Shown here: positions 1 through 29,520 of the stretch, in pieces
Numbering within the stretch: the first letter of the stretch is position 1
Layout of the letters: the number at the start of each line of letters is the position of its first letter
Assembly (NCBI GenBank): GCA_030704615.1
Contig: CM060734.1
Span: 33,418,001 to 33,482,000 of the forward strand
Length of the DNA stretch: 64,000 bases
Origin: Takakia lepidozioides
Taxonomy: Eukaryota > Plantae > Bryophyta
Direction: 5' to 3'
Notes under the pieces: model-generated
The model's database searches: none
What the model was told of the DNA's origin: nothing
The model's input: only the letters and a program-made list of their open reading frames with translations
Program-made: the position numbers and the translations under genes

Positions 1-12
1 ATCTTTCTCGAG
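1..12 (-). promoter_or_regulatory. Candidate self-priming primer-binding site directly after B1
   Basis: The minus strand reads CTCGAGAAAGAT immediately after the terminal CA of B1. This is exactly complementary to ATCTTTCTCGAG inside repeat B (29342-29353; 178-189 in B1). The window edge hides its full length. Confidence 0.5.
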
Positions 13-339
13 TGATAAAGAGGAAGAATACAAGCACAAGCTCATGCGAGCTCACAAAGCTGAAGCATAAACTCATGCATATATAATCTCATCACTCAAA
101 TACAAGTCAAGCCAAGTGCACCCCATGCCATGGGGAATCCACACTACGGCGCCATAGCTAGGCGCGGTGAGGCTCAACTCGAGAAAGATGAGCCTCCCGC
201 GCTTGCCGTGAAGATAACCACTCCAGGGCCTAAATCTGCCTTGACCCCTGGATTGACACTTGGGCCAATCCCAAATGTCAATATGTAAAAGCTAGCTATT
301 TCCTAACTAGTTTCACACTAGTGGTAAAATAACTTGACA
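13..339 (-). repeat. Terminal repeat B1 (327 bp, TG...CA), inferred 5' terminus of the DNMT-Gypsy element, now inverted
   Basis: Reverse complement of 29192-29518 with about 3 substitutions seen by eye. Reads TGTCAAG...TTTATCA on the minus strand. Flanked at 340-343 by GATT, the reverse complement of AATC at 29698-29701. Confidence 0.9.
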
Positions 340-788
340 GATTCAAAATGGCATGAAATTTCTGAGATATGCATTGGTGCAAAAGTAATGTTAACTCAAA
401 ATATTAATTTAGAAATTGAAATTAATTTAGAAATTAATGAAATTTAATTTAGAAATTGGTGCTGCCAACGGTTCAATTGGAACATTTACACAAATTCAAG
501 CAACATCAGATCCCCAAACAATTACATCAATATTAGTGCTCCTACATAATTCTGACAATAGTATAATACATCAAAATGAAATTAAATATACTAAAACATC
601 TTTTCCATTGACATTAGCATATGCCATGACTGGTCACAAATCTCAAGGTGCAACAATATCTTCAAATGTAATGATATCAATAAAAGAAGCATTTTCACCA
701 CATTATGCTTTCAAGAGTTACATCTAGATGTCATTTAAAAATAATAAACACTCTAACACCCGATGATTTTGAGCCCATGAAAATCTGA
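340..788 (+). pseudogene. Helitron Pif1-like helicase, C-terminal fragment
   Basis: IGAKVMLTQNINLEIGAANGSIG and FPLTLAYAMTGHKSQGATI Pif1 motifs; AT-rich; small duplications and deletions. Confidence 0.85.
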
Positions 789-7205: not shown

Positions 7206-8089
7206 CTGACTCGTGGAGGCACTGGTGGACTGCCTAAGGACTGACATGTCTTGAAGGCCAAATTTTGAAGCTCGTGGAGGGCGGTTTTGAGGAGTATCTT
7301 CATGATATTTCCATGGTCATGCAAGTGAGGGAAGAGAGGAGAAAAAAAGTGTTGGGATGAGGGCATGCTGGGGTTAGGCATTGCTTTAGCTTCTCTTCCC
7401 ATAGTTTTTCACCCTCTCATTAGGCCAAGACCTTTCCATAGGTGGAGGCAAGAGTCAGTCTGGGTCTGGGCTGGGGTATCCTTGCAGGAGCAACACCGTG
7501 GAGTTGTTTTGGTATGGGGGAGTTGTTATTCTAATTTCTTGTGTTTGGATCCCCTCCATACCTGTATGCTTGACTGTGCGCCATGTTAGTTTTGTGTGGG
7601 CGCTTGTTTTTATAGGTGATTGGTCCGGATTTGATCACCGGCCAGTCCTAGAGCATGCTGTCGATGGTGAGGCTGGGGTGATGACCAGTCAGACCATCAT
7701 TGTTTCTCCTGTGGTGAGGTTGGAGGTGATGACCAGCCAACCATAGGAGTGCTTGCAGTGGATGCAGGTGCAGGTATAGGCTGTGTTAAGAACCTAGTAT
7801 TCCAAACCATAAGCCGCAACAGGTTCTCTACCCAGTTACCTTGTGGAGAGGGGGTTAGGGACATGTTCATGACCGGTTGAGTAACAGTTTGTCAACACGG
7901 AGGTGCCACTAGTTGCTGTGGACAGTGCCGGTTCGAGCACTAGCGATACTAGTGGGTACACGAGACGAGGTGTGCGGTTTAGGCCACCTTCACCTCTTGT
8001 GTCTTCTACGGAAGGTTCTGATTCGGATTGTGAATCAGGAGGACTCACACCGGCGGTGCAAGTTGTTTCCTTGCCATTGTTGTGGGACA

Positions 8090-9700
8090 CAATGGAGGAG
8101 ATCTATGGAGCTACCAAGGGGCCACGAAGGTACTTTGGGGCAGTGGGCACCATCAAGTTGGATGATTTTATCCAAAAGTTATAGTTGGTGTGATTTGCAG
8201 CAAATGCGCAATCCACAACTATTTACGCCTTTCATGGCATAGAAGGGGTTGTTTCAACACCTTGAGGGGCCGCCTATGGATGATTACCATGAGTTCAGGC
8301 GGGGGCATGAGGTTGAGATTAAGGAGTGGAGGATGTATTGGTCACCCGACTATGTCTCCATCACTAGGGGCACTAGAGCCACGAGGGCAGTGGCTACACA
8401 TGCCGCTGCACCGACAGCTTCAGCAAGCAGCAGTGGGACTAGTGGGACTGGTGATACCGTAGCTACGACGTCCACCCAAGCTACTGCTGCACCAGCACCA
8501 GTGGCGGTGCCTGCCTTTAACCCTGTTGTGGAGTTCTTCGAAGAGTTAAGAGGGAACTGCCAAGGGGTGAGGACAGAGAAGTTGCGGAGCTTGCAAGAGT
8601 TCCAACGGAGCCGACTGAGAGCTTGAGGGAGGCTTTCACTCGCATGAGGCGCTTGATAAATGTAACCCAAGGGGTTACGGAAGCTCAGGCAGTCTAATTC
8701 TGGTATGGGATATTGGACAAAGAGCTGAGGAGAAGGGTGCGGGATGCAACTCTCCTACAAGCGGCCCAACCCACCTTAGCAAATGTGTTTTTGCTGGCAG
8801 AGCGGATAGAGCTCAACATGGTGGAGGAACGAGTGGTCATGGTGGGATTTGCTAAGGAGACACCACAGGGTAGTGGTGCTCCTAGCCAACCACTACCTCA
8901 ACGTGCTCAAGGCAACAAGGGGGCTCAGGTGAAGCTCAGGGAAGGGCAGAGAGGACCTCAGATGCAGGGGTCTCTCCCTTCATTTGCAAGCCAACAACGG
9001 GCGGATGTGGTGTGTTGGACATGTGGAGGACCCCACGTCAAGAAGGATTGTCCAGAGGGAGGCAAAGGCCGGCACATGCACAGCCTGCACAGTTGCAGTG
9101 TGGGCATTGTGGCAAGCACGGGCATGGAGAGGCCCAGTGTTATGGTTTGCATCCCGAGTTGCGCCCAGGCCAGTTCCAAGGGAACAATGGTGGCCGGGGG
9201 CGAGGGGAGCAGCCCAAAGAGGACGAGGTGGCCAGGCACGGGGTGTAGGCCAAGGGCAAGCTCAACATGGCCAAGGACGCGGAGGTCAGGGTGTTGACCA
9301 AGGCATGGCCAACCGGCTTCAGCAGCTAGAGCAGAGGCTCGCTGCCATGGCTACAGCTCAGGTGGTACCGGCTCCAAGGCCGGATGGTCCACCTCCTGCT
9401 CCTGAGGGAGGAGATATGGGAGGCATGGGATTCATGTGCGGAGCAGCACTACCACTAGTGCAGGTGGAGTCTGCTGCAGCCGTGACTCGAGGAGCAGCAC
9501 GAGTTCCTGAGCCACGAGGTGCAGAGGTGGAGTTGGATCCACAGCATGGGGAGGCAAGCCGTCAGGCTAGGCTCCCTCAGTCACATTGGCGGAGACAGTG
9601 TCGACGCCATCCATGGCACCTAGTTCTTGCCCGACTGTTACCGAGGCGGAGGTTACTATGCCATTGGGGAGAGCTACACGGGTAGCACCACTACCTAGTG
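8090..9700 (+). pseudogene. gag of the DNMT-Gypsy, with two zinc knuckles
   Basis: Fragmented ORFs containing CWTCGGPHVKKDC and CGHCGKHGHGEAQC upstream of the protease. Confidence 0.75.
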
Positions 9701-9872
9701 TTGCCAAGGCTACGACAGCTAGTGTGCTGCTGGGAGCGGCCACATTTGTATGTCAGGCTCCATTGTTCTCGGCTACCATGATTGCGACGCCGGGGGTAAG
9801 ACCAGCTGAGGTTTCAGGCTGGCAGCTACACTCTGTGAGAGTGGGGAGGTTATTTCATCTTCTGCGGAGATA

Positions 9873-10661
9873 GTGGGAGGTGTAGTGCCGGAGGGATCCT
9901 CGGATTTGAGGGTGAAGACTGCCACGGCGGCGCCATGGCAAGCTGCAGCTGCCAGGTTGATGGAGCTGCCAGCTAGGCCAGCCATTGAGCGCGCCATGGT
10001 GACACCTGGAGTTGTCATGTTAGACAACCAGGATGACATTTTCTGTTTGAGTGGACCGGTAGGCAAGAGGTACCGACCACTGCGGGTCTTGTTGGACTCG
10101 GGAGCTCAGCCATTGATGCTGGGCAGAGCTGCTATTGCAGGCTTGGGCCTCACAGAGGCGGATATGGAGCCTTGTCCTTTCCAGATACAGACGTCTCTGG
10201 GAGGATCAAAGCAGGCTCGAGGCATGACACGGCGTGAGTTGGCTATCAGACTACAGCCGGATCACCCTACAGATGGCTCAGTGATGCAAGCCAAGGCCAT
10301 TGTGACAGACGCGGTCTCGTACGATGTCCTGGTTGGTGGGGCACCGTTGTACCCCATGGGCTTCACCCTGGACTTTTGGGAAGAGTCAGCTTCCTATAGG
10401 CCTGGATGGCAGTCAGGGGAGGGCCGGCGTGTGCAGCTCCCTGTGACATTCATAGGAGGAGTTGCGGTTGCCCAGCGAGGCAAGATGCCGACACTAGCAG
10501 CATTCACAGCGGCAATGAGTTGGCCTGGAGAGTTGCTTGAGGGCAACGCTCATTTAGAGGATGTGCCACCTCCGGGAGAGCAGAAAGACATGTATGGTAT
10601 GGCGGAGTTGTCTGCCATGGTTGCTCAGACTCCATTGTGGGGTACGAGCAAGGATTTGTAG
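9873..10661 (+). pseudogene. Retropepsin aspartic protease of the DNMT-Gypsy
   Basis: VLLDSGAQ active site and YDVLVG C-terminal motif. Confidence 0.85.
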
Positions 10662-10805
10662 TGGGTTGCTAATCGACGGGTGCAACAAGCCTGGGTGGAG
10701 GCTTTTGTACCATCAGGAGAGGAGGAGAGTGCGGGGATTGCACCAGGACCACCTCAGTTGTCTCCATTGGACACCACACCTATTGTGTGGTAGTATCCGG
10801 ATGAA

Positions 10806-11735
10806 GGCATTTGTCTTCTGGACTTGTTTGGCGGGATCAGCACCGGATTGGCTGCTGTGTTACAGGCAGGTTTACGAGTTCGGCGTTACCTATATGTGGA
10901 GAGAGATGAGACTGCACGACGTGTTTCACTTTGCCATGTTGCTCAGTTGGTGCAGCAATACCCTGAGATGTTGCCGATGTCTGCAGTTCGTGGATATCAG
11001 CAGGCCTTGCCAGCAGACATTTCATTGCTGGGGGCGCAGGATTTGGAGCGAGTTGGCTCCATTGATCTGGTAGTGGCAGGTTGGCCCTGCCAAGGGCATT
11101 CATCAGCCGGGCATGGCAATGGATTGCAAGACTCAAGGTCGGGTCTGTTTTGGGAGATGGTGCGGGTTTTGCGCCACTTGCAGCTTCATCAAGCTATATC
11201 TCTAGCATACATCTTGGAGAATGTGCCACTGATGGGCGATTCTTGGGCCAGGGTGATGGCCAGTGTGCATCAAGTCCGGTCATGGCTTGGGTCAGTAGTG
11301 TTGCTAGATGCAGCTACAGTGGGTCACGGGCTCATCGTCCACGGCTATGGTGGACTAACTTGATGCCACCCGCATTGCTCAAGCGTGCATTTGATGGGGT
11401 GCAGCGGCCAGCACACCTCACAGTGGATAGCATTTTGGACACAAGGAGACAGTCTCAACGTGTGAGACACGATGACCGTTCGCCTTTGGCAGTGGTCAAC
11501 AAGGTGGGTCAACCACGAGCAACATTGCCTACACTGCTCAGCTTCCCAGGATCGCATGCTTTCCGGGATAGTGGACCTGGCCTCCTCTGGGATGCTCAGT
11601 TGCAGCAGTTAATGGAGCCTAATGCTGACGAGCGTGAGTGGGCAATGGGTTTTACCACTAGTACCATGCCGTCTCTTTCTGAGGCATCACGTCGTCAGGT
11701 GTTGGGGCAAGCAATGGATCTCAATTGCTTGACCT
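10806..11735 (+). pseudogene. C5 cytosine DNA methyltransferase domain (Dnmt3-like) inside pol
   Basis: Motif I LDLFGGI, II YVERD, III ADI, IV DLVVAGWPCQG, V SGLFWEMVR, VI YILENV, VIII AHRPRLWWTN, IX EREWAMGF, X RRQVLGQAM. Same frame as the protease, with one frameshift near 11325. Confidence 0.93.
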
Positions 11736-12179
11736 GGATTATCAGCTTGGCTATGGCTGAGCAACACAGAGTGCGGAGTACACTTCCCTCGATGGTCTCT
11801 CTGCCTACCAAGATGGTACAGGCAGTGAGTGGGGGCGAGCATGAGAGGACCACGGGGTGCAGGCATCCATGACACACGTGGGAGGTGCTCGAGGTTCAGA
11901 GGGAGTTGGCAGCTAGGGCGGCGGTGATGGATGAGGTTGGGGATTTTTCTCGGGTTGAGGAAGTCCTTGAGGATGAGATGATGGGGCAGGATGAGGCCTT
12001 GTCATTGACTGAGCAGGCAGGGAGTATTGCTCAAGAGGTTGCAACATAGCAACCACTGGACGCGTCCTCTACCTCTAAGCCCACTGGACTTAAGGTTGCA
12101 GTTACGGAGGACAATTGGGAGCCTGACATTGGACCCATTGTCACCGGAGGAGAGAGACAATGTATACGGCGGTTCCTGA

Positions 12180-13848
12180 GGGCTTATAGGAATTGCTTTG
12201 CCTTTAGCTTGAAGGACTTGGGAGCACTGAAGGGTCAAGAGATTCGTATTGAGTTGGCCACTGACACGCCAATCTTTCAGAGACCCTATAGATAAAGTGA
12301 CATGGAGAGGTCTTTGATTTAGATGAGGACTCAAGATCTCTGGGAGTCAGGTTTGGTGGAGCTCTCTGGTGGAGAGTATGCTTCAGCCACAGTGATGCCA
12401 GCCAAGAAGGATGTCTATGGCAATTGGACGGAGAGACGTATGTGCGGTGATTACCGGCCTGTAAATCGTCAGACCAAGTCCGATAAGTATGCCATGCCAA
12501 CACCAGAGGAGATCTTTGATGCCATAGGGCATGCTAAGGTCTTTAGCACTTTGGATTTATGATCCGGATATCACCAAGGAGGCGGACAAACAGAAGACGG
12601 CATTCTGGGGGATCAATGAGCACGGCAAGGATTGCCTATATCAGTGGCGGTTCTTACCATTTGGGCTTAAGAACGCTCCTGCAGAGTTTCAAAGAGTCAT
12701 GGATAGGATTCTAGCAGGGGTGGACTTTGCTCGGTGCTACATAGATGACATCATCATCTTTAGTGCTACGGTGGAGGAGCATGAGAGACACCTTCAGGTG
12801 GTATTGGAGCGCTTGAGAGCGCACGGCTTGAAGTTGCATTTGGGAAAGTGCAAGTTTTTCCACAACCAGATTGAGTATCTGGGTCACATGATATATCCTG
12901 GAGGATTGGGGGTACAGACTAAGATAGAGGCCATTGCACAAATTCCACGCCCCACGGATGTGAGCCGAGTTCGAGCTTTCATGGGATTGGCAAACTATTA
13001 TAGACGGTTTGTCAAGGGATTTAGTGCCATTGCAAAGGCTCTAACCAAGCTGACCAAGGTGGACCAGGAGTGGCAGTGGGAAGATGAGCAGGAATGAGCT
13101 TTTCAAGAGCTCAAGGCGAGGTTGACCTCGGCGCCTATCCTGAGACGACCTATCAGGGGGCGTCCCTTTCAGCTACATACGGATTGGAGCATGCTGGGGC
13201 TTGGAGCGGTGCTCACACAGGTGGATGATGAGGGAAGAGAGTTTGTAGTGGCTTATGCTAGCCGCTCGAACTACGTTCTAGAGGCTAAGTACAGCTCATT
13301 TGAGGGAGAATGCTTAGCTGCGGTGTGGGCCGTGGCACACTTCAGGTGTTATCTATACGGCAATCTCTTCACCTTTGTCACGGATCACCAGCCACTCAAG
13401 TGGTTGATGGAGTCAGACAAGCTTACGGGGAAGCTTGCACGGTGGGCACTCATACTCCAGGAGTACGACTTTCAGGTTGTGCATCGACCGGGTTGGGTCA
13501 ATCAAGATGCGGATGGATTGAGTCGCAATCCATGCACAAGCCAACAGGATGACACTGGAGCTCGGCGGCATGGTGAGACGGACGAGGAGATGGTGTCGGG
13601 ATGGCATGCATCTGCCTTTTTGTGTATCTTGGCATCGGGAGGTCAGATTGGACCCACAACAGGGATGACTGCAGACGGAATGTTTGAGGACCCTGAGGTT
13701 AGTGATGAGCCAGGTGATACCCGAGATATACATGAGGATTCGGCTGTGTTGGACTACCTCCGTATTGGAGACACGGCAGCCACTTTGACTGCCAAGGAGA
13801 GGGATCAGATCCTGCAATGAGCCAAGAGGTTCAAGTGGGAGGGGATAC
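12180..13848 (+). pseudogene. Reverse transcriptase and RNase H of the DNMT-Gypsy
   Basis: RMCGDYRPVN, LPFGLKNAPAEFQ, CYIDDII, LHTDWSMLGLGAVL, TDHQPLKW, DADGLSR; several premature stops. Confidence 0.95.
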
Positions 13849-15061
13849 TGTTAGAGGACTGTCTGGGACTTCGACACTTATACGGGATCTGTGGGGTACC
13901 CTTAATTTTTGCACAGACTAAGACCAACAGGAGCCTTAGGGGTGACAGCAGCGCACTTTAGGGGGGGGGGGGGGGGGGGTGACATATCCCGTCATAGCCA
14001 ACACAGCCGACACAGCCAGACACAGTCAACACAACCCATCACACCCAACACAGCCCGTCACAGCCAGACACAGTCAACACAGCCCGTCACAGCCAACACA
14101 GCCGACACAGTCAACACGGCCCGTCACAGCCAACACAGTCGACACAGCCAGATACAGTCAACACAGTCCGTCACAGCCAGCACAGCCGACACAGCCAGAC
14201 ACAGGCAACACAGCCCGTCACAGCCAACACAGCCGACACAGCCAGACACAGTCAACACAGCTCGTCACAGCCGACACAGCCCATCACAGCCAACACAGCC
14301 CGTCACAGCCCGTCACAGTTTCACACAGCCAGTCACAGCTTGACACAGCTGTCGCGACCATAGGGAACGGATAGCCGGACATGGAACAACTGTGGGGAAC
14401 AACACCTGCGAATGGAACATGTTAGTTCACGGACGACGGTTAGTGAGGGAAACGGTTAGAACAACGGGTAGGAAGATAAAGCTAGAAGCAAGGACTGAAA
14501 GGGGGATCATTCTTGGAGCACTTCGGGGGGGGGGGGGGGGGGAGAATCACTGCTGGAAGGAGTGGGAAGGAGCACTTCTTGGAGAGACTTCGGACATCAC
14601 TGGGGGAAAGGAGGAGAGAGTGTATCTCTGAGCAGAAAGATGGAGAGCACGGAGTAGGAGGAGGATCTGTTGATGCTTAATGAATGCAGGCAGTAGAATT
14701 GTAATGTAGAGCAGATTAGAGACTCCATGGCTTCAGCATGATACTTGATAGATATTAATCTGATACACACCTCATACTCACACTGTGTAGAGAGATCTGA
14801 GTGAAGCTGTGGAATGAATTGATGAGTTGATGGAATCCGATAAATTGATGAAGCAAACTGATACTTAATTACCAGCAGTAAAGTAACTAGCTAACATGAA
14901 TGCAGGAAGGAAAACAAATAGGAAACACCCCCATGATACACTAGCTGTAGGTCATGACTGATTGTTCTGCGCGGGCTGAGTACTTAGAGATTTCCAACTC
15001 TTCTATCTTGGAGTTTCCGCCTCGGATAGCGAAGGGATGGGTGAGTAAAAGCCGCGCGACA
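13849..15061 (+). repeat. 5' LTR of C1 (contains a CACAGCC array at ~13990-14350 and poly-G runs)
   Basis: Direct repeat of 26356-27447, TG...CA. Confidence 0.95.
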
Positions 15062-15661
15062 TTTGGCGACCATACTGGGGATCTGGGTCATGAACAACCA
15101 GATGTGACAGGCATCTGGTGGGATCATGGTGGATGGAGAATTAAAGAATTTGATGTGAATCAAATTCCTTGTGAAACTGAGAAGGAAAGATTGTCCAAAC
15201 GATTCTTCCAGAGGTTTTTGGAATTGCCAGACGGTTGTAAAGAAAACATTCTTAAGAGAGTGCATGATGCTGACCCTGAGTGGGGTCTGGAGAAAGGAGT
15301 GATAAAGATTTATCAGGTTGCCTGTAGAGGAAGAGCACGTTGGTTACCAACATTGGTTTATGTGATAGCATTGCTATCCATTAAGCGAGTAGAGTTTGAA
15401 GGCTGGGAGGAAAGAAAGGTGAATGTTTATACTCATATGCATGAAGAGCTTGTACTGGTAAAGAATTGGATTCCAAAGGATATTTTGTGGATCAAACTCA
15501 CACCAAGAACAGCTTTTCAGACTTGTTTGCCATATGGTTATATGGTAATGGAGTATGGTAATGGAGACTTCAAGTATAGCCAAGGGTGCATTGAAGCTTG
15601 AAAGAAACCCAGGCATATACGAGAGATATTACAGAAGAGAGTTTTGGTTATTGCCACATTA
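14954..15661 (+). pseudogene. Extra upstream ORF (ORF0) of C1, unknown function
   Basis: 215 aa ORF plus a shifted tail; conserved in C2 (44269-44964) with synonymous changes. Confidence 0.65.
15064..15081 (+). promoter_or_regulatory. PBS of C1, tRNA-Arg-like
   Basis: TGGCGACCATACTGGGGA 2 nt after the LTR; resembles the TGGCGAC...CTGGGGA tRNA-Arg PBS of Ogre/Tat elements. Confidence 0.75.
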
Positions 15662-15684
15662 AAAAGAAATGAAAGACATGGGAC

Positions 15685-18600
15685 ATGAGTGATGAAAAGA
15701 AGCTAGACGCCAGAGATATTCAGCAAAAAGAGAAAGCTATCTGAAAGCTAATTATCCATATCTTTGGGAGAGAGGAATAGACATAGGGGAATCATCTGGA
15801 CCTCTCACACCATTAAGATCAAAGAGTACATCACCCATACCGGAAGAACTAGAGTTGGATGCCACTCCTTCTGTTTCTTTGCAAGAAAGATTAAGGGAAT
15901 TGGTACGGGAAGAAGATCAATCACGAGGTGAAAGATCTGAGGTACATCCCTGGATAAAAGATTTGACAGAAATCTTTGATAAGAGTTGGCATGGAACACC
16001 AAAAGCAGGAACTCCAGTTTCTGAAGCGGAAGGTGAAGAAGGAGGAGAGGATGTGGCAGAGCCAACGGAGAGTTCAGACTCTCCAACACCATTACAGTTG
16101 AGTTACATGAGTGAAGAAGAAACCCAAGGGCAGAACTTGGAGGATGAAAACAGAGAGAAGAAATTGGAAGAGGAAGAATATGAAGAAGTAGACCCAACAG
16201 CTGAGGTTGAGACTACAACCAGGACATCCCAACCCGTTGGACCTGGATCAAGTGGAGCACTTGGATCACAGGCCAACGAAGGTGTCGGCTCAGGGGGATC
16301 AGGCGGGCTGCCTGGATCTGGCTCTGGGGGACAGGGAGTGTGGGAAGTAGTGCAACTGAAGCTGGGAATACTGTGAATATCGTGGGGCCAGAAGCAGGGA
16401 GTGCTCAAGGGCCACCACTTGGTGGAAGATCCACCACAACAACAACAGGTCCAGAAGGACCAGCACCAGCAAGGGTGCCAGCACCTGTCAGTGGGCAGAA
16501 AGTAGGGCCACAGATGGCGTTACAACCAACACGGGCAAAACCACCTTTTCCAATATATTCAGGAAAAGGGGATCCCGATGTACACATTAGCCAATTTGAG
16601 CACATGTGTATAGTGAACAATGAGAATGGCGATGATGCCAAGATGAGATTGTTTCCTTGTTCACTTATAAAGAAAGCAAGTGAATGGTATGCAAGATTCC
16701 CTGATAATCATTTCCTAACCTGGAATGGCTTGAATACAACATTCCGAAATAGGTTCAGGACAAGTAAAACTGAGGATGAAGTGTATGGAGTTTACAACAG
16801 TTAAAGCAAAAGAAGCATGAAACTGTTGAGGAGTATATGGAAAAGATGGAATTGATGATGAAAAAGCTGGCTGCAGTACCAGCACCAGGGTTACAGAAGA
16901 CTTGGTTTGTGAGTGGACTAAGACCAGAGTTGCAAAAGAAAGTGGATATGTTACCCCATAATACAGTGGAGGAGGCATTTGAAACTGCAAACAGAATTGA
17001 GCAATTGGGAATGCTCAGGAGAGAGAAAAGGGATGATGAGGACTCTGAGGATGAGTCAGATGAAGAAGAAGAGCAAGAACTAAAAAGGAAGAGTAAGAGA
17101 AAGGAGAAGTTGAAGAGGGATAACTATGAGAAAAGATTGGAAGAAATCTTGAAGAAGTATGCCACAGAGGCTGCAACACATTGGAGGAAGGTGTATGGTG
17201 TGCAAAGTGCCAGAATGAAGGCCATACCACCACAGAATGCCACATGAAGGAGAAACACTGTACTATCTGTAAAATGGATAACCATTCTACTGAGAATTGT
17301 TACTACAACAGAAGGACAGTTGCAAGAGAACCTAGGCAAGTAAGGGTGCATCAAGTGCAGCCCCAGCCAAGAAGAAACAATGATCAGGACCACTATGGTA
17401 GGTCTGGTGGTTATAACAATGGCATGGAAGGGAGAGGTAATTCAAGAGGGAATTACCAAGGAAATTCCAGAGGCAACTATCAGGGTAATCCAAGGGGGAA
17501 TTACCAGCCCGGGAATCAGGATTACAGAAATAATCCAAGAACAGACCAAGGGCGAGGACCCAATGGTGAAGAACTATGTTACTATTGTAATCAGCCAGGA
17601 CATCGCAAGGCAGCCTGTTCATTCTGGATTAGACACCAGAATGAGATGAGAGCTCCTGTGAATGAGGGCCCAGTGGTGGCAGCTCACATGGTTAGGCCAT
17701 GTGTTGTACCAGAAGTAAGTACAATGATAGTAACAAGAAGTAAAGCCAAACTAATACCTCCAGTAGTAGAGGAAGAAGATGATAATGAAGGTGGCAGTGA
17801 TATGCCTGAAGATGATGAGGCTTGGAGAGATGAGAAGGAACTGCACAAGGAAGTGGCAGATACCATAAGGGAAATGCAGAAGAGTACTGATATTCCTGTG
17901 GCAGATTCCTCTGATTCTGATGGAGAAGAAGAAGTGAGTGAGGATGAAAGGAAGAAAGAAGATGCAGACATGCAAAGTAATGAAGAGACTTTGGCTGAAG
18001 TAATATGCCAGACCAAAGCAGAGATTACCATTGGACAGCTATTGGCTGTGGCACCTTATTGTAGGCACAGGCTGTATCAAGCAATCAATCGAATTGCCCA
18101 GGAGACAGGAAACACAGACCTGAACAGCAAGGTGACCAGTTATAATGTGAAGCCGGAAGGGCGAGAAACAGTCATGGACTTTGATGATTCTATGCCAGTA
18201 ATCCAATTGAGAATTGGAAGCACAAACTAACTGATGTACTGATAGATGGAGGTTCTGGAGTAAATATCATGACAGACCAATTAAGGAAGAAGCTTGGTCT
18301 AAGTAACATGAAACCAGCCCCATTTACAGTAACAATGGCAGATCAAAGAAGTGTACAGCCATTGGGATTAATAAGAGGAGTTAAGATACAGATACAGAAG
18401 ATGATCTTTATGATCATAGTAACTGTGTTGAAGATGGATGAAGTCATGGAGGCTTACTCCTTATTATTGGGACGTCCGTGGCTGAAACAGGCCAGGGTAT
18501 TCCATGACTGGAATTCTCAGTTACTAACCGTGCATAATGGGATACACGAGATACAAATTACCACAAAGAAATCTAGTAGATTACCTGCTACGAGAAGACC

Positions 18601-21600
18601 TCGAGGAGTCAGAGAGTATGACTGGAGAGGAGGACTGGATGAGGAGCAGGAAGCTACCCTGTTTGCTGCACACCCAGAGTGGGAGCAGGTTGCAGAGATG
18701 CGGCTGGAAGGCCTAAGTTGTTTAAGGGTATCTGCTGTGGTGTAGTGTCAACAACACCGATTGAAGAGGAAACCAGCAGTTACCCATCACATTTCTATGA
18801 AGAAAAAGAAGGAGAAATGGAAATCCTAGAGGAACCAGCCACTGTGAGTTTACAGGATGAAGTGGTGACTGGTTGGACAATCACAGCTGATGAGCAAGTG
18901 AGGGAAGTGAATGTGGGAACTAAAGAGGAACCAGGATGGTGAAGGTAGGAGCTGATTTGGAGCCAGAATTCTTTGAAGAAGCTAAGAGTTTGTTCATCAA
19001 ATACAGAGATGTATTTGCTTGGAGCTATGAGGATTTAACAGGGATACCACCTGAAATCTGTCAGCATAAGATTGAACTGGAACCGGGGTCAGTACCAATC
19101 AAGCAGGCAAGGTACAGAATGAATCCCAACTACGCACAGAAGGTTGGAGAAGAGATCAAGAAGTTGGCTGAGGCTAAGTTTATATACCCAATAGAGTATA
19201 CAACTTGGTTGTCACCCATTGTGATAGTTCCCAAGAAGAATGGTAAACTAAGAGTTTGTGTGAACTACAAGAAGCTGAATGCTTGTACGAAGAAAGATCC
19301 TTTCCCTTTGCCATTCACAGAAGCAGTATTAGACACTGTGGCAGGCCATGAGATGTACTCATTCATGGATGGCTTCAGTGGTATAATCAAGTGCAAGTGG
19401 CAGAAGGAGACCAAGGAAAAACAGCTTTCATCACAGACTGGGGTGCTTATGCATACAAAGTCATGCCCTTTGGACTTTGTAATGCACCAGCGACCTTTCA
19501 GAGAGTGATAAGTGAATCTTTTCATGAGTATCTGGATGATTTCATGCAGGTGTTCTTGGATGATTTCAGTGTGTACAGCTCTAAGAATGAGCACTTGCAT
19601 AAATTGGAGTTATGTCTGGCCAGATGCAGGATGAGAGGTCTGGGCCTGAATCCAGAGAAGTGTACTTTCTGTGTGAACTCAGGGGTGCTTCTGGGACACA
19701 TTGTGTGTAAGAGGGGACTTCTTGTGGATCCCAGGAAAACAGAGGCCATTAAAGCCTCTCCACCACCAGTGAATGTTAAGAGTCTAAGGAGATTCCTTGG
19801 ACAAACCAGCTATTACAGAAGATTTGTCAGACGGTATGCACAGATAGCAGCACCATTGAGCAAACTTCTGAAGAAAGATGCAGTGTTTGCATGGACACCT
19901 GAATGTCAACAGGCTTTTGAGGAACTTACATTGTCAGTAACAACTACACCTGTGCTGATTAGTCCTCACTGGCAGAAAATATTTCATGTTCACTGTGATG
20001 CTTCTGGAGAAGCACTAGGAGCGGTGTTAGCCCAAAATGTAACAGGAAGGATAGATTCACCTGTGTACTATGCTAGCCGATTGATGAACAATGCCGAAAG
20101 AAATTATAGCACAACGGAAAGAGAAGCATTGGCAATGATCTATGCAGTGAAGAAATTCAGGCATTACCTGTTGGGCAAGAAGTTTATGTTCTATGTGGAT
20201 CACCAGGCTCTGATATACCTGGTAAACAAACCTCTGATAAGCGGAAGAATAGCAAGATGGTTAATAATCTTGCACGAGTTTGAGTTCGAGGTTGTTTACA
20301 AGCCTGGGAGACTGCATCTTGTGGCGGATCACTTGTCAAGGTTATCAACAGGAGAACCAGCCACGGGAGTAGATGATCAATTACCAGATGCGAGTCTATT
20401 TACAGTGGAGGTGCAGGGAAGTGCAGATGACTGGTTAGATTGGCAGTGGCCAATCAGATACTACCTTGCTCATGGTCAGTGCCCACCAAGTTATGGAAAG
20501 GAGCAGAGAAAGAGAATTGCTATCAAGGCTCTACCTTACACTATGGTAGGGAGCAGAATGTATAAGCTAGGACCAGATGGAGTGCTGAAGCGATGCTTAT
20601 ACCACCATGAAGTTAATAAAGTTTTGGAGGAAGTTCATAAAGGAGTGGCAGGAGGTCATTTTGGAGAAGAGACTACCAGCAGGAAAATACTACATGCAGG
20701 TTACTGGTGGCCTACTTTGTTCAAAGATGTACACAAGTATTGTCAGAGTTGTGATGAATGTCAGAGGCTGGGACCTTTGCAGAGATCTGGGAAAATGTCT
20801 TTGCATCCTACAATGCCTACGGAACCATTTCAGAAATGGGGACTAGACTTTGTTGGACCAATTAACCCACCAGCCAAGAATACACAGAACAGGTACATAA
20901 TTACAGCCACTGATTATACTACGAAGTGGGTGGAAGCTAAAGCTTTGAGGGACACATAGCCAAGTCCACAGCAAGGTTTCTGTATGAGAACATACTTACA
21001 CGATTTGGCTGTCCCTTGGAATTTATCAGTGATCAAGGAAGTCACTTCATTAATGAGACCATTGAATTGTTGACTAAAGAGTTCATGATTGTGCATAGGA
21101 GGAGTACAACATATTATCCACAGGGTAATGGGCAGGCAGAGGCTACGAACAAAATACTATGTACTATCTTGGCTAAGATAGTCAATGCAAACAGAACAGA
21201 TTGGGATACAAAGCTGCTGACAGCTTTGTGGTCATACAGGACTTCATATAAAGTCACCACTAAGTATACACCATTCCAATTAGTTTATGGTATGGAAGCC
21301 TTACTTCCAGTGGAATTCCTGTTACCTACCATGAGAACGGAATGGGGAAAGAGAATGGAATTGCAAGATTCCATAAAAGTCAGGAAACATGAATTATACC
21401 ATGTGGAAGAAGTACGTGCTGATGCAGCTGATAATATGACCAGAATTCAGATGAAGAGAAAGGAACAGTTTGATGAAGGCAAGTTAAAGACTTTTAAGAC
21501 GGGAGATTTGGTTCTATGGTTGCAGAAGAAGGGAAAGATTAAAGCTTGTAAGCTTAAATCACCATGGAAAGGACCTTATGTCATACAAAAGATGTATGAT

Positions 21601-22050
21601 AACAACACCGCCATGTTACAAACCATTAACAAAGAGATGCTGGGAAGAGTCAATGCTAATAAGTTGAAGGGGTACAGTGGTATCCATGACAAACCATTGC
21701 AGCATATTTGCATGTTGAAACGCAAAAGCAGTCACGGGCTGCGCCAGTGTTACCAACGGAGTATAGAGCACTTGTCGCTAGGCCGAGCATATATGACCAG
21801 GGCGGGCAGAACAAGCGAGACACAGCCTATCACAGCCCATCACGACGTGACACAGCCTATCACAGCCCATCACAACGTGACACAGCATATCACAGCCCAG
21901 CACGGCGCAACACAGCCTATCACGACCTACCACAGCGTGTCACAACCTATCACAGCTTACCACAGTGCATCACAGCCTATCACAGCTTACCACAGTGTAT
22001 CACAGCCTATCACGGCATACCACAGTATGACACAGCCTATCACAGCTTAA
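15685..22050 (+). pseudogene. gag-pol of C1 (gag, zinc knuckles, PR, RT, RH, INT), frameshifted
   Basis: DPDVHISQFE gag motif, CAKC/CTIC/CYYC knuckles, [51 protein letters not shown]. Confidence 0.95.
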
Positions 22051-22060
22051 CACAGCCTAC
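21815..22060 (+). repeat. 21-bp tandem repeat (CACAGCCTATCACAGCTTACC-like) after the integrase
   Basis: About 11 imperfect units; also present at ~37850-38105 in C2. Confidence 0.9.
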
Positions 22061-22350
22061 TAGGGTTACACAATCCATAGAATCAGTGACAGGTGGACGC
22101 AGGATAACTTCAGTGAAATGGCCGGCGGAAGAAAGGACGGAAGCCAGTTTACAAAGGGACACGTGGAAATCAAGGCGCAACACACAGCTGAGAAGGAGTG
22201 CAAGAACGGATATCATCAAGAAAGGGGACAAGAATGGCCGTCAAAATACCTAATCAGTGCGTCAAATTGGATGAATGGCGGGCCCATTAATGAATACAAA
22301 AAGGGGCAACAGAACAAACGGCAAGTACAGAAAAACAAAATTCTTGTCAC

Positions 22351-25300
22351 ATGTGTTATCCTAGTGGACAGTCCAGCAGGGAAAGTCCACTAAAGAAAAT
22401 TAAATCTAAAATTCAGTCACAGCGGTTACAGCCAATAGAAAGCCAGAGAAGGGATCAAGAAATTGGAGGGAAATTAAGCGCAAGAGTCGGCGTCGTTCTG
22501 AGTAACGGGCGTCTCGACGGGACAAACCATCAATGCTATAGCTTTGAAGCAATGGAGGAACTAACAGACTATACGCTCGCAATATTACTTACGCAGTGGC
22601 ATAGGGACGAAACAACAGAGCGGATCTTTTCTCTTGAGCGATGCTTGCAAGCCCCGCAGGCTTACAAGAAAATACCCATAGCTTTTTGTGGCAACCATAC
22701 GTTTATGCTTTGTGCACTACAGGCATTTCTTCAGTTGTTACAGCCAAAACATTTCTGTGGGTCTAGAATGAAGAGAGTGAGAGGAATGGAGAAAATCAGG
22801 GTGAAGAGCACCACAATTCTGCAGAAACAAACGATTGCTACCCCACAGGCGATACAGATACTGAAGGAGCTGAGATTCCAAGGATTGCAAAGCAAAGATT
22901 GGACATTGCACCATAGACAGTACATGTTACAATTCTTGCAGAACTTTGAGCCAAGGACAGGAGCAACAACGGTGAAGGGAGTTGAATTAGTAATTACTCC
23001 CCTATACCTCCAGCAATTGTTTCGATTGCCAGCAGGCCAGGTGCATGTGGAGGCAAGACTGCAAATAGGGGACTTATTCCAAGAAGGGAGTTTCTTTAAA
23101 ACTCAGGGTTATGCTTGTACCAAGGCCGTGTACCCAGGGCTAAAGGAGGTAGGCCAGGTATTGAACGTTCTGTTTGCCATGAAACAGAACCAACAGTATT
23201 TGAGCAGATCCTTCACAGAGGAAATACTCAAAGCCCTGAGAGGAGAAGAGGTAGAATGGGCGGACATAATGTACAACGCACTGGTGGTAGAGGAGATGAA
23301 AAGATTACAGGGTACTGCCGCAAAGTCTCCTATTATAGTGTCTGGCCCAATCATTGCTCAAATAATTCTTGATTCTGGCATACTTGATGCGCGAGAAAGA
23401 AAGGAGATGGGAGTGTTTGAGCCAGAAACCACTGCAATGGAAGAGCAAGGCTCTTCACACAGTGAGGGTGGACTGGCAAGGCAACCCGAGAATAAGAGAC
23501 AGAGGCGGGGAAAGACTGTAGTGGCGGATCCACTGGCTTCACGGAATCCGCATGATAATGTTTCCCAAGTTTTTGTGCAGGAAGGGGCACAGCAGCACAG
23601 AGAACTGCTATTACTGGAAGCAGGACCTTCAGAGAGGGAAGAGGAAGTTACTTCAGTATCACAGCCATCACAGCCAGAGGATCGGCTTGTCACAAGGTTA
23701 CCACAAGTTGTCCATGCAGTTCAACCAGAAATAATTGATTTAGAAAAAGAAGGGTTAGATATTCCCACTACAGAACAGGTGGTGGCAGAAATAGAGAAGG
23801 GGGACCTTCTCTATGAATATTCTGGTATGGTCAAGGACACAGTGATTCCGGAGGTGCAACGTTGTCCAAGGGAAACCCTGCGGCGCATATAATACACACA
23901 CCTGTGACGGAGGTACCACAGGTAGAATGCCAAGACACTGCAGCACCAGTGACGGATGAAGTGGTTCAGGAAGAAAATCTGGTGGGGCAATGGCCTGAAT
24001 GGTTCGTAAGGCATCACACTGTTGAGGATCAGGGAGAACAGCAGCAAGCTCACCATGATGACCCTCAACAGGCTATGCTTATGAGTTCCATAAGCAGGAC
24101 ACTGATTTGTTGGGTACTTATGTCAAATCCCATGTTCCCACTACTCAATTGGCAGCTTTGAGGGAGGAACTCAGGCAAGAGTTTGAGGCTCGACTTGCCA
24201 CAGAGTGTGCAAACAAGGTCGATGAAGAGGTCACTCTCAAAATGCAGCAAAACTTAGAGAGTACAGAAGCGGCTTTGCAATTGGCCAAGGAACAATTGAT
24301 TGAGGCAGGCCTCGCACTAGAACACTTGCACGAAGCACATAAGCAACAGCTATACCAAATGCAGGTGAAGCATGAAAGCAAGTTGCAAGAAGTGAATGCA
24401 CTACATATGGAGTTGCAGACAGTGCATGACAGGATGGCCATACAATGTGCTACACTCACAACTATGCTTGACCAATCTACAAAAGAAATAAACAGTCAAG
24501 CGGAAAAATGTACGAAGGCAGAAGAAGAGAATGTTGAGCAAATGAAACTCATTGTCGATATGAAGAATACAATCTGTCGCAATGAGGATACTTTCAAGCA
24601 ATACAGGCAGGTTGAAGCTGACCAAGAGAAGCACATCCTGGAGTTGCAACAAACGGTCATGGCCAATAGAAATGAAATCTCGGTCACTAACAAGGCTTGG
24701 AAGGAAGCCAATAATCTGCTTGCTGCTTATGCAAATTTGGTTGAACCTCATGCGAAGCGCATGGAGGCTTTACAACAGCAGTTAGATGTGTACAAACTCA
24801 GAGAGGAGCACACTCTCAGAGGAACCACAAGCAACTTGGTGGATAACCACCTTATGCAGGTCTGGTTAGCACAAGGGCCAGTGGAGGGCAAAGCACCACG
24901 AAAGCTCACCCAAAGCGAAATGAATGAGCTCAGACTGCAAGTGCAGAACATTGCCACAACTACTATAGACAATGTCTATAGTAGGATAGCGGAGTTACAG
25001 GAGGATGTAGACGGACTGCAGACTCAAGTGGAGGACCTAACTTCAGATATTGACAAAAGAGTCTATATACCTGAGGAACAGCTAATGGCTTCTTATTCAC
25101 AAGCCAGAACTTTGGCTTTTCAATCTTCTTCACAGCAGGTGCAGGAGATGCCAATGATACAAGAGCCAGTGCCACCAACACCACAACAAGTCGCTGTGCC
25201 AGTAGCTGACCCTGTTGTTACTACAGCCACGCCACAGCCACCACAGCCTGACGTATGGGGCAATGCTGCTTTTAACCCACCTAAAACTCCAGCTGCAAGG

Positions 25301-26317
25301 GAGTACAGTAGGGCTATGATTATGCCCTTCAACCAAATTCCCATTGTGTTGGATTTGGTTTGGAAAGAATTTAGTCCTCCGCAGTCATTCGCACATTACT
25401 ATCAAATCATGCGCATATGGTTGCCAGTGGCAACTAGGACTAAAGTTCTTCCGAACAATCGACCAATTGAGGATCATCACTTTGCACAGTACTGGCATGA
25501 GGCAGATACCATGTTGAAGGAATTAATTGCTTTCCAAGTTGTACATGGATTCATTTATACCAAGACCAAGGAGGTAGCAAGTATTGTCATGGGATGCGGG
25601 TTATACTACGCTGCTTGTTTTCTGGTACGTTATTACATTGAGCAGCACAAGATGCAATCGCGCTTTCTGAGTTATTCCAGTGGGGATCATTGGGTCTTAC
25701 CTTCAGTGCCACCTCATATGTACCTATATGAGGCAAAAGTTATGATACAAAAGGATTCTCAAATTCGTTCATGGTTTCATGCGGCCTGGAACAATTTGTC
25801 AACACAGAAATTCGGCATTGATGATATTTTCTATAAGGGACATGTGGCATGGAAATACTTGCACAATTCACAAGTCATTGGTACCCCACTCACCTGGACA
25901 GAAAAGGAGCTAAGGGTCTTCACCAATTTTGCCATTCAGCGTTTACAACAAGTTTTAAAATATAAACTTCCAGACATGGTAGGACAACATTGTATGCCCT
26001 AGAGGATTCCACAAAAAGTTCGACAATTAAAACACCTGAGAGGCGATGAGGATTCTGATACAACTGTTTCTTCAGCGGACTCTTTTGACATGGGAGAAGA
26101 CTATGCAATTCAGATGGCAGAAAAGAAGCGATGGGGGTCTCCTATGCCTGAAAGGTTACCTCGATATCAGCCTCCAGAGGGCCTAACATATCCAGGTAGT
26201 GTTCAATCATCTCCGTCAACCAGTGACAGACCTCGGGCTCGTACACACAGTCCGCCACGAAACTCTCAACTTCAGAAAGGTGCTCGCTCACAAAGGATTG
26301 CTAATCCCAATCAGTAA
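22351..26317 (+). pseudogene. Large extra 3' ORF (ORF3) of C1: plant-transposon-protein-like N-terminus, acidic linker, coiled coil, unknown C-terminal domain
   Basis: Consecutive ORFs of 513, 99, 631 and 75 aa between INT and PPT; conserved in C2. Confidence 0.8.
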
Positions 26318-26355
26318 ACCGTGAGGACACGGCTTTTTAAGAGGGGAAGGGGTAA

Positions 26356-27447
26356 TGTTAGAGGACTGTCTGGGACTAAGACACTTATACGGGATCTATA
26401 GGGTACCCTTAATTTTTGCACAGACTGAGACCAACAGGAGCCTTAGGGGTGACAGCAGTGCACTTTAGGGGGGGGTGACACAGCCCGTCACAGCCAACAC
26501 AGCCCATCACAGCCAACATAGCCCGTCACAGCCAACACAGCCGACACAGCCAGACACAGTCAACATAGCCCGTCACAGCCAACACAGCCAGACTCAGTCA
26601 ACACAGCCCGTCACAGCCAACATAGCCAGACACAGTCAACACAGCTCGTCACAGCCGACACAGCCCATCACAGCCAACACAGCCCGTCACAGCCCGTCAC
26701 AGCCCGTCACAGTTTCACACAGCCAGTCACAGCTGTCGCGACCATAGGGAACGGATAGCCGGACAGGGAACGACTGTGGGGAACAACACCTGCGAATGGA
26801 ACATGTTAGTTCACGGACGACGGTTAGTGAGGGAAACGGTTAGAACAACGGGTAGGAAGATAAAGCTAGAAGCAAGGACTGAAAGGGGGATCATTCTTGG
26901 AGCATTTCGGGGGGGGGGGGGGGGCGGGGGGATCACTGCTGGAAGGAGTGGGAAGGAGCACTTCTTGGAGAGACTTCGGACATCACTGGGGGAAAGGAGG
27001 AGAGAGTGTATCTCTGAGCAGAAAGATGGAGAGCACGGAGTAGGAGGAGGATCTGTTGATGCTTAATGAATGCAGGCAGTAGAATTGTAATGTAGAGCAG
27101 ATTAGAGACTCCATGGCTTCAGCCTGATACTTGATAGATATTAATCTGATACACACCTCATACTCACACTGTGTAGAGAGATCTGAGTGAAGCTGTGGAA
27201 TGAATTGATGAGTTGATGGAATCCGATAAATTGATGAAGCAAACTGATACTTAATTACCAGCAGTAAAGTAACTAGCTAACATGAATGCGGGAAGGAAAA
27301 CAAATAGGAAACACCCCCATGATACACTAGCTGTAGGTCATGACTGATTGTTCTGAGCGGGCTGAGTACTTAGAGATTTCCAACTCTTCTATCTTGGAGT
27401 TTCCGCCTCGGATAGCGAAGGGATGGGTGAGTAAAAGCCGCGCGACA
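26356..27447 (+). repeat. 3' LTR of C1, preceded by PPT AAGAGGGGAAGGGG (26339-26352)
   Basis: Direct repeat of 13849-15061 with a shorter internal array. Confidence 0.95.
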
Positions 27448-27452: not shown

Positions 27453-28560
27453 ACCTGCTCCGAGTATGGGAGGATGGTCGGGTGAGGATTGTGCCTCACC
27501 CCACACATCGTGCACGGTTAGTGCGGCATGCCCATGAGGAGTTGGGGCATTTTGGAGTGCGACGCACTCACAGTTTATTGCAAGGGCAGTATTGGTGGCG
27601 TGGTATGTATACAGAGGTGCAACAGTTCGTGGCTAGGTGCATGGTGTGTGACACGGTGCGTGCTTCATTCAACGCCGCTATACCACAGTTTCATCATTTA
27701 CCAATCATGGGATTGGGCTACAGGTGGAGTCTTGACTTCGCAGGACCGTTGCCACTGACTATGCGCCACCACAGATATGTGTTGGTGATGGTGGAGCGCT
27801 TCTCCAAGTGGATTGAGTTGGTTCCATTGCGTGACAAGGCTAGTGAGGGGGCTGCGTACGCATTCTTGGTTCATGTGCTTAGCCGATTCGGTGCTCCAGC
27901 TGAGGTACTCACGGACCAAGGGAGAGAGTTCTTGGGGGAGTTTCAGGCTTTGTGTGATAAAGCCTTGATAGACCACCGCACCACTTCTTGGGATCATCCT
28001 GAGGCCGATGGCTTGGCAGAGAGAGTTGTTCAGATGGTGAAGAGGGGTTTGCGCAAGTATGGCTTGCAGAAGGGACACCTAGGAGATTGGGATCTTTAGG
28101 TTCCTTGGTTAGCCATGGGCTACAGGTTCCGCAAACAAGCATCACTTGCCTCCTTCTCACCATATTTCCTTCTCTTTGGTCGAGAGCCGGATTTGCCTGC
28201 AGCCATTTGTATGGACACTGCTCAAGTCCTTAACCTTGACGATCCGGACGTATGGGTACGTGCATGTGATCAGCGTGCAGAGTTGTTCAAGAAAGTCATG
28301 CCCATGGCTTTTGAGAACCTTGCCATTGCACAACACCGTGATACGTTGAGGTATGCCACTATACGTGGTGGAGGATATCGTCCTGGGGTTCGGAGGTTTA
28401 GCCTTGGTGACTATGTTTATTTGTAGCAGACTGCTCCTACGACTCTGGATGTTACTGCAGGGCGTGTTATTCTGAGGGTTCGAGAGGTGTTGCCCTCAGG
28501 GGTCTTGATCTTGGAGGGTCGGGATGCGCCATGTCACCTTCCCAATGTCGATGGCTGAGT
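27453..28560 (+). pseudogene. DDE integrase of the DNMT-Gypsy
   Basis: HEELGHFG...CMVC zinc domain, WSLDFAGP, LTDQGREF, DGLAERVV, SPYFLLFGREP. Confidence 0.95.
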
Positions 28561-28597: not shown

Positions 28598-28741
28598 TGC
28601 ATGCTTTGTGGGTCTGCCAAAGGGGCAGCCACCATGCTGGTGTGTGATCGATGCTCAAGGGGTTGACATATGGGATGTTTGACACCACCTCTTGAGAAGG
28701 TTCCTGACGGAGATTGGTTGTGTCCACACTGCTTGGGATAG
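28598..28741 (+). pseudogene. PHD finger at the C-terminus of pol
   Basis: Manual translation CMLCGSAKGAATMLVCDRCSRG*HMGCLTPPLEKVPDGDWLCPHCLG* fits the C4HC3 consensus; the internal stop is TGG>TGA. Confidence 0.92.
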
Positions 28742-29189: not shown

Positions 29190-29191
29190 GC

Positions 29192-29518: not shown

Positions 29519-29520
29519 AT

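Follow-up and report, generated by a model that had tools for sequence, protein, structure and literature searches.

A DNMT3-like methyltransferase, a conserved in-frame stop and rearranged terminal repeats in a Gypsy-type retrotransposon family of land plants

Introduction

A 64,000-nucleotide stretch of the Takakia lepidozioides genome (Bryophyta; GenBank assembly GCA_030704615.1, contig CM060734.1, positions 33,418,001 to 33,482,000 of the forward strand), hereafter the window, raises the question of whether a land-plant retrotransposon carries a cytosine methyltransferase of its own, how such an enzyme would be made and on what it would act. The kind is known from Klebsormidium nitens, where the available text of de Mendoza et al. 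(2018, PMC5890265) describes KnitGypsy-Dnmt3, a Gypsy polyprotein with an intronless Dnmt3-type domain. An earlier note, made from the letters of the window alone, had read positions 9873 to 13848 as a Gypsy Pol polyprotein with such a domain built in between protease and reverse transcriptase (RT). Here, the element is described as a member of an abundant family in which the methyltransferase, as judged from locus comparison, closes the Gag-protease frame at a conserved stop, and in which the terminal repeats are rearranged.

Results

The Gypsy-type element of the window is a dead member of an abundant family with the order Gag, protease (PR), DNMT3-like methyltransferase (MT), RT, RNase H (RH), integrase (INT) and PHD finger. 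A profile search of the window returned Pfam RVT_1 (E=9e-25) and RT_RNaseH (E=1e-33), while the protease match stayed below threshold (17.7 bits, cut-off 24.3). All of the methyltransferase motifs named in the earlier note were located, in canonical order and free of introns: one frame holds the protease LDSG (10092) together with LFGGI (10824), PCQ (11085) and ENV (11217), and the frame of the RT start holds HRPRLWWTN (11333), EREWAMGF (11630) and RRQVLGQAM (11690). The note had placed the domain in frame with the protease on its 5' side and with RT on its 3' side, with one frameshift between; the motif frames and a change near 11320, within the methyltransferase, agree with this, but a second frameshift lies near 12570, inside RT, and a stop at 12047 proved to be family-wide. 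Further stops lie at 10659, 10791, 11870, 12293, 12320, 12560, 13095 and 13818, with four more in the integrase-PHD part; among those between protease and RT, 10659, 10791 and 11870 are private to this copy. Nor does the element end at 13848, where the note had closed it: a 13.6-kb long terminal repeat (LTR) element is nested there, and the integrase and PHD finger follow at 27453-28732. The copy has the PR-RT-RH-INT order, DDE integrase, TG...CA ends and 4-5 bp target duplication of Ty3/Gypsy elements; it departs from them in that no two complete LTRs surround the coding region, repeat A standing at the left and B-A-B, or B, at the right.

The methyltransferase was assigned by profile, sequence and fold. 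The DNA_methylase profile, which the note had suggested searching with, matched 10794-11360 (E=1.4e-12, 48.1 bits, cut-off 22); the C-terminal piece alone gave no Pfam match. Motifs I-X are unpermuted, with PC and ENV, and not rearranged as in DRM enzymes. In a PDB sequence search, DNMT3A was the top solved-structure match both for the N-terminal piece of the window copy (E=3e-6) and for an intact relative (E=6e-12); the closest solved sequence and fold are those of DNMT3A/B, at about 22% identity, and DRM and bacterial enzymes rank lower by sequence. Fold prediction was based on relative P0001, which is 75% identical to the window over the N-terminal methyltransferase piece, rather than on the broken domain itself. 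Modeled from 70 sequences, P0001 reached a predicted local distance difference test score (pLDDT) of 93.4, against 48.7 for a fold from eight sequences, and DNMT3A/B/C were the sole folds among the matches listed (best E=1e-19). The analysis supports the Dnmt3-like assignment that the note had proposed.

To describe the family, the window was compared with database proteins, metagenome loci and host sequencing contigs. The first half of the methyltransferase matched 67 longer proteins, among which Marchantia polymorpha, Calypogeia fissa and Sphagnum supply the top named matches at 54-77%, and a search with the RNase H region added Riccia, Klebsormidium and Closterium (best 120 of 252 matches). 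The metagenome set consists of the best 80 of 100 loci, from few samples and with duplicates included; the order gag-PR-MT-RT-RH-INT-PHD is kept in these 80 loci, as far as each extends. In one sequencing run of the host, 67,154 contigs align to the stretch, covering all 30 bins; in two other runs, the methyltransferase is joined to RT and RNase H within single contigs. None of the runs listed as containing the stretch is marked as RNA, and one guessed to be RNA was left out of the evidence. The sequence comparison thus identifies the domain as a family trait, present at the same place in the Marchantia, Calypogeia, Sphagnum, Closterium and Klebsormidium relatives; the lineage does reach land plants, as the note had supposed, and the domain, whose absence from other copies would have refuted the note's reading, is carried by the 80 loci and the named relatives.

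The domain also appears to be maintained. Between the window and the loci, synonymous sites are saturated (proportion of synonymous differences, pS, 0.72-0.79), whereas nonsynonymous differences (pN) reach 0.21 in the methyltransferase, 0.18 in RT, 0.175 in the integrase and 0.30 in the protease. The catalytic cysteine is present in 77 of 78 rows and ENV in 73-77 of 78, and the motifs binding S-adenosylmethionine (SAM) are kept. Domain dN/dS is 0.17 among distant pairs and 0.46-0.60 among close, decayed pairs. These values indicate purifying selection comparable to that on RT, rather than the neutral drift that the note had named as the alternative.

In phylogenetic trees, the window copy clusters with liverwort, Sphagnum and metagenome copies, with support of 99 for the methyltransferase and 98 for RT; together with a plant-type PPR array in the window, this clustering points to a seed-free land plant as the probable host. 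The methyltransferase tree is a quick one with a midpoint root, in which 75 of 144 domains were kept and most RH-MT rows were thinned to a third; in the RT tree, two outgroup rows from other Gypsy elements of the window are partly in the wrong frame, so its root and deep forks were not read. The domain of the K. nitens protein P0178 groups with the land-plant domains (SH-like approximate likelihood ratio test, SH-aLRT, 93; methyltransferase tree), and P0178 has the same PR-MT-RT-RH-INT order, in line with the kinship to the Klebsormidium element that the note had suggested. Viral contigs yielded only six weak phage-type methylase loci.

A chlorophyte sister lineage with the order RT-RH-DNMT3-like-INT-PHD was observed (P0053-P0055, P0061, P0068-P0180), with Monoraphidium, Haematococcus, Scenedesmus and Cymbomonas among the named hosts; no description of it was found in the literature searched. 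The domain sits at the RNase H/integrase position in 115 chlorophyte-type proteins, which separate from the PR-MT form in both trees, and the full order is present in 67 of 180 proteins. The domain would either have shifted within the polyprotein or been gained twice. P0192, a transcriptome-derived RT-RH-INT-PHD protein of the clade to which the window element belongs, suggests that some members are expressed. The 1417-residue P0050 combines RT, a C5 methyltransferase and a Dam adenine methyltransferase in one frame, by its look a DIRS-like element with two methyltransferases.

The stop at 12047 sets the land-plant branch apart from a simple Pol insertion. Of the 50 loci that span the methyltransferase end and RT start, 39 keep a single frame across the linker, and all 39 have a stop in it; wherever the RT start could be aligned, in 49/49 loci, the stop stands at one place, the remaining 31 loci not reaching both sides. 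Its 38 distinct contexts comprise TAG in 27 and TAA in 11, with CAA next in 37, while at every other codon of the element the stop frequency is at most 34%. In host-family contigs (best 40 of 43 rows), positions 12047-12055 are without variant and the stop at 11870 is missing from nearly all. Database proteins containing the last methyltransferase motif number 23; seven of them, including Marchantia and Calypogeia, end 93-99 residues past it, and the rest are shorter fragments or gene models running on; the model P0012 passes from methyltransferase to RT without the linker. In algal-type relatives, namely Klebsormidium P0178, three Closterium models and six unnamed proteins, a single protein contains both domains. 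For the named Marchantia, Calypogeia, Sphagnum and Klebsormidium proteins, stop and termini were deduced from protein ends only.

These alignments identify the stop as a family feature, not decay, and the first frame of the land-plant branch as Gag-protease-methyltransferase ended by it. The claim that the enzyme is built into the Pol polyprotein is therefore not supported in that form: the stop splits Gag-protease-methyltransferase from RT-RNase H-integrase-PHD. Since it occurs in 49/49 loci, the second part is likely made by stop-codon readthrough. The window context, TAG CAA CCA, fits CAR-YYA, the tobacco-mosaic readthrough consensus 3' of a stop (PMC2194720).

The ends of the element are rearranged in a recurrent manner. 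The layout A-coding-B-A-B is found in the window and in six loci, and A-coding-B in four; the termini are TGTC...GACA, with a 4-bp target duplication. Both ends were available in 11 loci, of which eight have a perfect duplication (two being the same insertion), two match at 3/4 bases and one has a damaged left end. The B1/A2 joint has a 2-base spacer in 8/8 loci and the window, whereas the A2/B2 joints vary, one keeping a primer-site remnant and another a 17-base insert. No tRNA-type TGG followed A1 in any of 22 A1 ends. What follows A1 is a stretch complementary to a site 150-168 bases into A, over 13 bases in the window and up to 17 in the loci, and this complement differs in sequence between the window's and the loci's subfamilies. 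Given a purine tract before B and a primer site after A1, the ordinary LTR would be B+A.

In the window, the 5' repeat (1-339) lies away from the body (7500-29697) and in the opposite orientation. The insertion target was a decayed Helitron Pif1 helicase gene (Pfam PIF1 E=1e-11), seen at 340-700 (+) and 29698-31076 (-). The possibility that the repeat at 13-339 belongs to a second element was ruled out by the common AATC duplication and the Helitron frame continuing across the flanks, which therefore mark it as the same element's 5' end. The insertion was therefore either broken up afterwards by an inversion or misassembled, with one break beyond the left edge of the window and the other between about 5480 and 7500. 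A1/A2 divergence (0.9%) is lower than that of the nested, younger LTRs (2.1%) and that of B1/B2 (3.9%); gene conversion is our guess for this closeness, and no age is given.

The features of the copy are collected in Table 1.

Table 1. Features of the element copy and of its insertion site in the window.
Feature	Position	Strand	Basis
Probable self-primer site after A1, 13 bases able to pair with a position about 150 bases into A; cut by window edge	1..13	-	sequence complementarity
5' repeat A1, TGTC start at 339; away from the body and in opposite orientation; element continues off left edge	13..339	-	99.1% identity to 29192-29518; AATC flanks; Helitron frame
Left target-site duplication AATC	340..343	-	equals 3' flank
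Decayed gag, frameshifted several times, with two zinc knuckles (about 9013-9143); approximate start	7950..9800	+	translation; relatives match at 45-80%; no Pfam match
Aspartic protease, LDSG at 10092	9990..10440	+	motif, sub-threshold Pfam, relatives
DNMT3-like C5 cytosine methyltransferase, PC and ENV intact, frameshift near 11320	10794..11770	+	Pfam, PDB sequence search, fold of intact relative
Family-conserved in-frame TAG, then CAA CCA; closes Gag-protease-methyltransferase frame; predicted readthrough signal	12047..12055	+	locus comparison
Reverse transcriptase with YIDD at 12738, and RNase H; interrupted by stops and one frameshift near 12570	12110..13530	+	Pfam, motifs
Nested unrelated LTR retrotransposon at integrase start; 5-bp duplication GATAC; LTRs 2.1% apart	13849..27447	+	repeats, duplication
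Integrase (H2C2 zinc finger, rve core) and C-terminal region	27453..28560	+	Pfam Integrase_H2C2 E=7e-17, rve E=3e-13
PHD finger ending the integrase, one internal stop	28598..28732	+	weak Pfam match, first half only; intact relatives E=1e-9 to 1e-12
Polypurine-tract-like G run directly 5' of B1	28985..28999	+	sequence
Repeat B1	29000..29189	+	repeat comparison
Palindromic B1/A2 joint GACA-GC-TGTC, termini head to head, 2-base spacer; proposed integrase cut site	29186..29195	+	sequence
Repeat A2	29192..29518	+	repeat comparison
Repeat B2, ends GACA (3' terminus)	29519..29697	+	repeat comparison
Right target-site duplication AATC, inside decayed Helitron helicase gene	29698..29701	+	flank comparison

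The window is almost wholly mobile DNA. The nested element belongs to a young Gypsy-like LTR family with two copies, at 13849-27447 (+) and about 32657-45790 (-), whose LTR pairs are 2.1% and 0.6% apart; CG depletion in it is strong (0.18), tandem repeats occur in the LTR and interior, and two long extra open reading frames without Pfam match lie 3' of the integrase (22297-23889, 24065-25999). Decayed LINE, MULE/SWIM-type and CACTA-like (DUF4216) pieces and a further Gypsy element occupy 1700-5480 (+), 45710-48370, 49137-50057, 52096-57990 and 53487-54134. Tandem plant-type PPR repeats at 50390-51109 (+) are probably a gene fragment.

Discussion

Starting from the observed domain order, conserved stop, selection, terminal anatomy and 4-bp duplication, we infer a cycle in which an enzyme made at the level of Gag methylates the element's own complementary DNA (cDNA), RT and integrase arise by readthrough, and a joined two-LTR molecule is opened inside an LTR. 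We hold this proposal, taken as a whole, to be probable by a modest margin over its being wrong. Transcription would start inside A, and the RNA 5' end would pair with the site just past A1 and prime itself in a Tf1-like manner; the plus strand would begin at the purine tract before B. The outcome would be an ordinary linear cDNA with a B+A LTR at each end, whose ends are then joined, forming the A2/B2 joint. Within the left LTR, integrase would then open the palindrome GACA-NN-TGTC so that two CA-3' ends result, and their insertion with a 4-bp stagger would yield A-coding-B-A-B. The enzyme, present in many copies in each particle, would methylate the cDNA while it is double-stranded and not yet inserted, most likely at CG by analogy with the Symbiodinium enzymes, and the PHD finger may steer the integrase to chromatin. 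The gain for the element could be disguise, protection or self-restraint.

Several observations weigh against this proposal. The 80 loci come from few metagenomes with duplicates, so their counts are not independent. Most metagenome copies read CAA-CCC after the stop, one base off CAR-YYA, with an ATG two codons on, and re-initiation is possible there; readthrough is therefore rated as likely rather than shown. When G-U pairs are tolerated, the self-primer score equals that of controls (median 11 vs 11), and only the position recurs, 11 of 22 lying at 166-168. The mirror form A-B-A was found in 0/22 5' ends, though the circle would contain two identical palindromes, and the circle model therefore needs an unexplained preference. 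At least some B-only copies can be explained by B1/B2 recombination. The Klebsormidium domain was inactive in yeast, the sole published test in the available text, where the authors call the result inconclusive (PMC5890265). CG observed/expected is 0.50 in the element against 0.18 in the nested element, which has no methyltransferase, and the decay of the loci (CG 0.19, CHG 0.21, CHH 0.06, against 0.02 for reverse transitions) is as expected from host silencing; hence, neither CG depletion nor the decay pattern, in the window and the loci, shows a footprint of self-methylation.

The absence of A-B-A forms would be accounted for if the ends were made in the manner of PAT/Ngaro-DIRS elements, which we consider unlikely but worth serious attention. 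A full A1-to-B2 RNA would then be copied with the inner B-A joint as splint or template, as in the DIRS mechanism, and integrase would act without cutting a two-LTR circle. The repeat layout is identical in SymbioDIRS-Dnmt3 and KnitGypsy-Dnmt3, as described in the available text of PMC5890265. Against this, the purine tract lies right before B1 and the primer site right after A1, the very places that a B+A LTR requires, and the primer-site remnant and insert at A2/B2 joints resemble joined cDNA ends. The A-coding-B copies were also tried as proof of one-LTR circles and rejected, as the 3' flanks of L037 (B only) and L075 (B-A-B) are 95-96% alike. The anatomy is suggestive of integration from circular DNA, a route without earlier description in the literature searched. 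Foamy-virus integrase cleaves palindromic circle junctions, according to the portion of PMC1180852 consulted, and self-priming of a similar sort is recorded for Tf1, Tj1 and Tcn1 in the consulted parts of PMC4600332 and PMC6317226.

The substrate of the enzyme is a separate matter. It could act on particle RNA, on the target site after insertion or on host chromatin in trans, or serve as a DNA-binding component of the particle; we regard this set of readings, too, as having a minor share of the probability. The lack of extra CG loss in the element and the silent Klebsormidium domain (PMC5890265, available text) are in keeping with it, as is the stop itself, which uncouples the domain from RT and integrase. 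The conserved nucleophile, ENV and SAM-binding motifs and the DNMT3 fold speak for catalysis on DNA, and related Symbiodinium Dnmt3 enzymes methylate CG on DNA in yeast, as reported in the available text of PMC5890265. By analogy, then, methylation of new cDNA inside the particle is the most likely activity. The earlier note had the enzyme packaged with RT; this is likely, though through Gag rather than Pol, to judge from the frame structure. By general retroelement biology, the enzyme would then be present in amounts like those of Gag rather than at the few-percent level of Pol. The PHD finger resembles, by its motif features, what we take to be the unmethylated-H3K4 type. Such fingers are frequent in green-algal elements, as far as the consulted parts of PMC8557442 and bioRxiv 10.1101/2022.06.16.496473 go.

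Less probable still is that RT-integrase has its own start, by re-initiation or an internal promoter, or comes from an RNA in which splicing has taken the stop out; the anatomy would be unchanged. The ATG two codons past the stop in most metagenome copies fits this, the Candida Tca2 gag stop gave no readthrough in yeast (PMC2194720, in the part consulted), and plant elements with two reading frames, Gag or Gag-protease first, are already known (PMC6317226, likewise). However, the ATG is missing in the window and in L013, L019, L063 and L072, which nevertheless keep stop-CA(A/G)-CC; the frame agrees across the stop in 39/50 loci; and no joint excising just the stop was seen among host-family contigs (best 40 of 43 rows), which as DNA contigs cannot exclude splicing. 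Readthrough therefore remains our preferred reading of the stop. A one-off capture of a host DNMT3 retrocopy by the window copy, followed by neutral drift, has nothing in its favor besides the decayed state of that copy and is refuted, to a negligible residue of doubt, by purifying selection and the same position across liverworts, mosses and streptophyte algae.

In a broader and more speculative form, to which we give somewhat less than even credence, an ancient green-plant lineage would use a DDE integrase to open a palindrome in joined two-LTR cDNA; its land-plant branch would have put a DNMT3 on Gag via a leaky stop, and the many active de novo methyltransferases of its particles would pre-methylate the cDNA and may add to the Marchantia and Sphagnum methylomes. 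A methyltransferase-carrying retrotransposon now stands in a genetic model, as many Marchantia gene models are its pieces, and the question raised in 2018, what an element gains from a silencing enzyme, becomes testable in existing methylation mutants. The conserved stop predicts Gag-level amounts of enzyme, a mechanism unlike 'methylation by the Pol multiprotein'. To judge by the permuted ends, a retroelement integrase may here insert by way of circle junctions as a rule; such ends would also make standard LTR annotation and LTR finders miss the family. Counts of DNMT3 genes in bryophyte proteomes call for caution, since element copies are among them.

In the literature searched, with subscription papers, Repbase and the main 2018 supplement outside the search, nothing was found on land-plant members, the stop or the ends; the consulted portions of PMC11982613, PMC8616336, PMC11244446, PMC10952607 and bioRxiv 10.1101/2021.11.30.470311 contain no mention of them. 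The kind and its repeat layout are already known from Klebsormidium; the conserved stop and the detailed structure of the ends, absent from the literature searched, are offered here as two testable mechanistic leads.

The nearest known system is KnitGypsy-Dnmt3, which shares the intronless Dnmt3-type domain, purifying selection and, in one legend sentence, the A-coding-B-A-B repeats (PMC5890265, available text), with P0178 showing the same domain order. It differs in being one open reading frame according to its authors, whereas the land-plant family has a stop before RT in 49/49 loci and the window; in the RT tree, the window family is not sister to P0178. The hosts here are land plants, and Marchantia is missing from the 2018 species table. 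The available text of that account does not include target duplication, palindrome, priming or PHD finger. SymbioDIRS-Dnmt3, PAT and Ngaro elements share the split direct repeats in A-coding-B-A-B order, and the SymbioDIRS Dnmt3 domain is active on CG in yeast (PMC5890265, as above), but they use a tyrosine recombinase, in place of which the window family has a DDE integrase, together with TG...CA termini and a target duplication of 4 bp; no tyrosine recombinase (PF00589) appeared in the domain lists of the family's proteins, the 5' untranslated part of the loci lying outside the scan.

Tf1, sushi, Tcn1 and Tj1 of S. japonicus likewise have no tRNA primer site, and Tj1 needs an in-frame stop; their LTR interior is complementary to the primer site (PMC4600332, PMC6317226, in the parts consulted). 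In the window family, exact complements of 13-17 bases occur in the best copies, with a wobble-tolerant score no higher than controls; the family differs from what is given there in its PHD finger in place of a chromodomain, its permuted LTRs and a stop after protease and methyltransferase rather than after Gag. An in-frame amber stop with CAA next is shared with the tobacco-mosaic UAG-CAR-YYA signal, murine leukemia virus gag-pol and SIRE1 pol-env (PMC2194720, in part), but here the stop follows an enzyme, and most metagenome copies read CAA CCC. EpiLTRs and DAM-LTRs also combine a retrotransposon methyltransferase with a chromatin reader; in the accessible portion of that account (bioRxiv 10.64898/2026.05.21.726589), which names 'streptophytes (Gypsy-DNMT3)' once as previously described and without land-plant data, the enzymes are DNMT4-related and the readers chromodomains, whereas the land-plant family pairs a DNMT3-like domain with a PHD finger.

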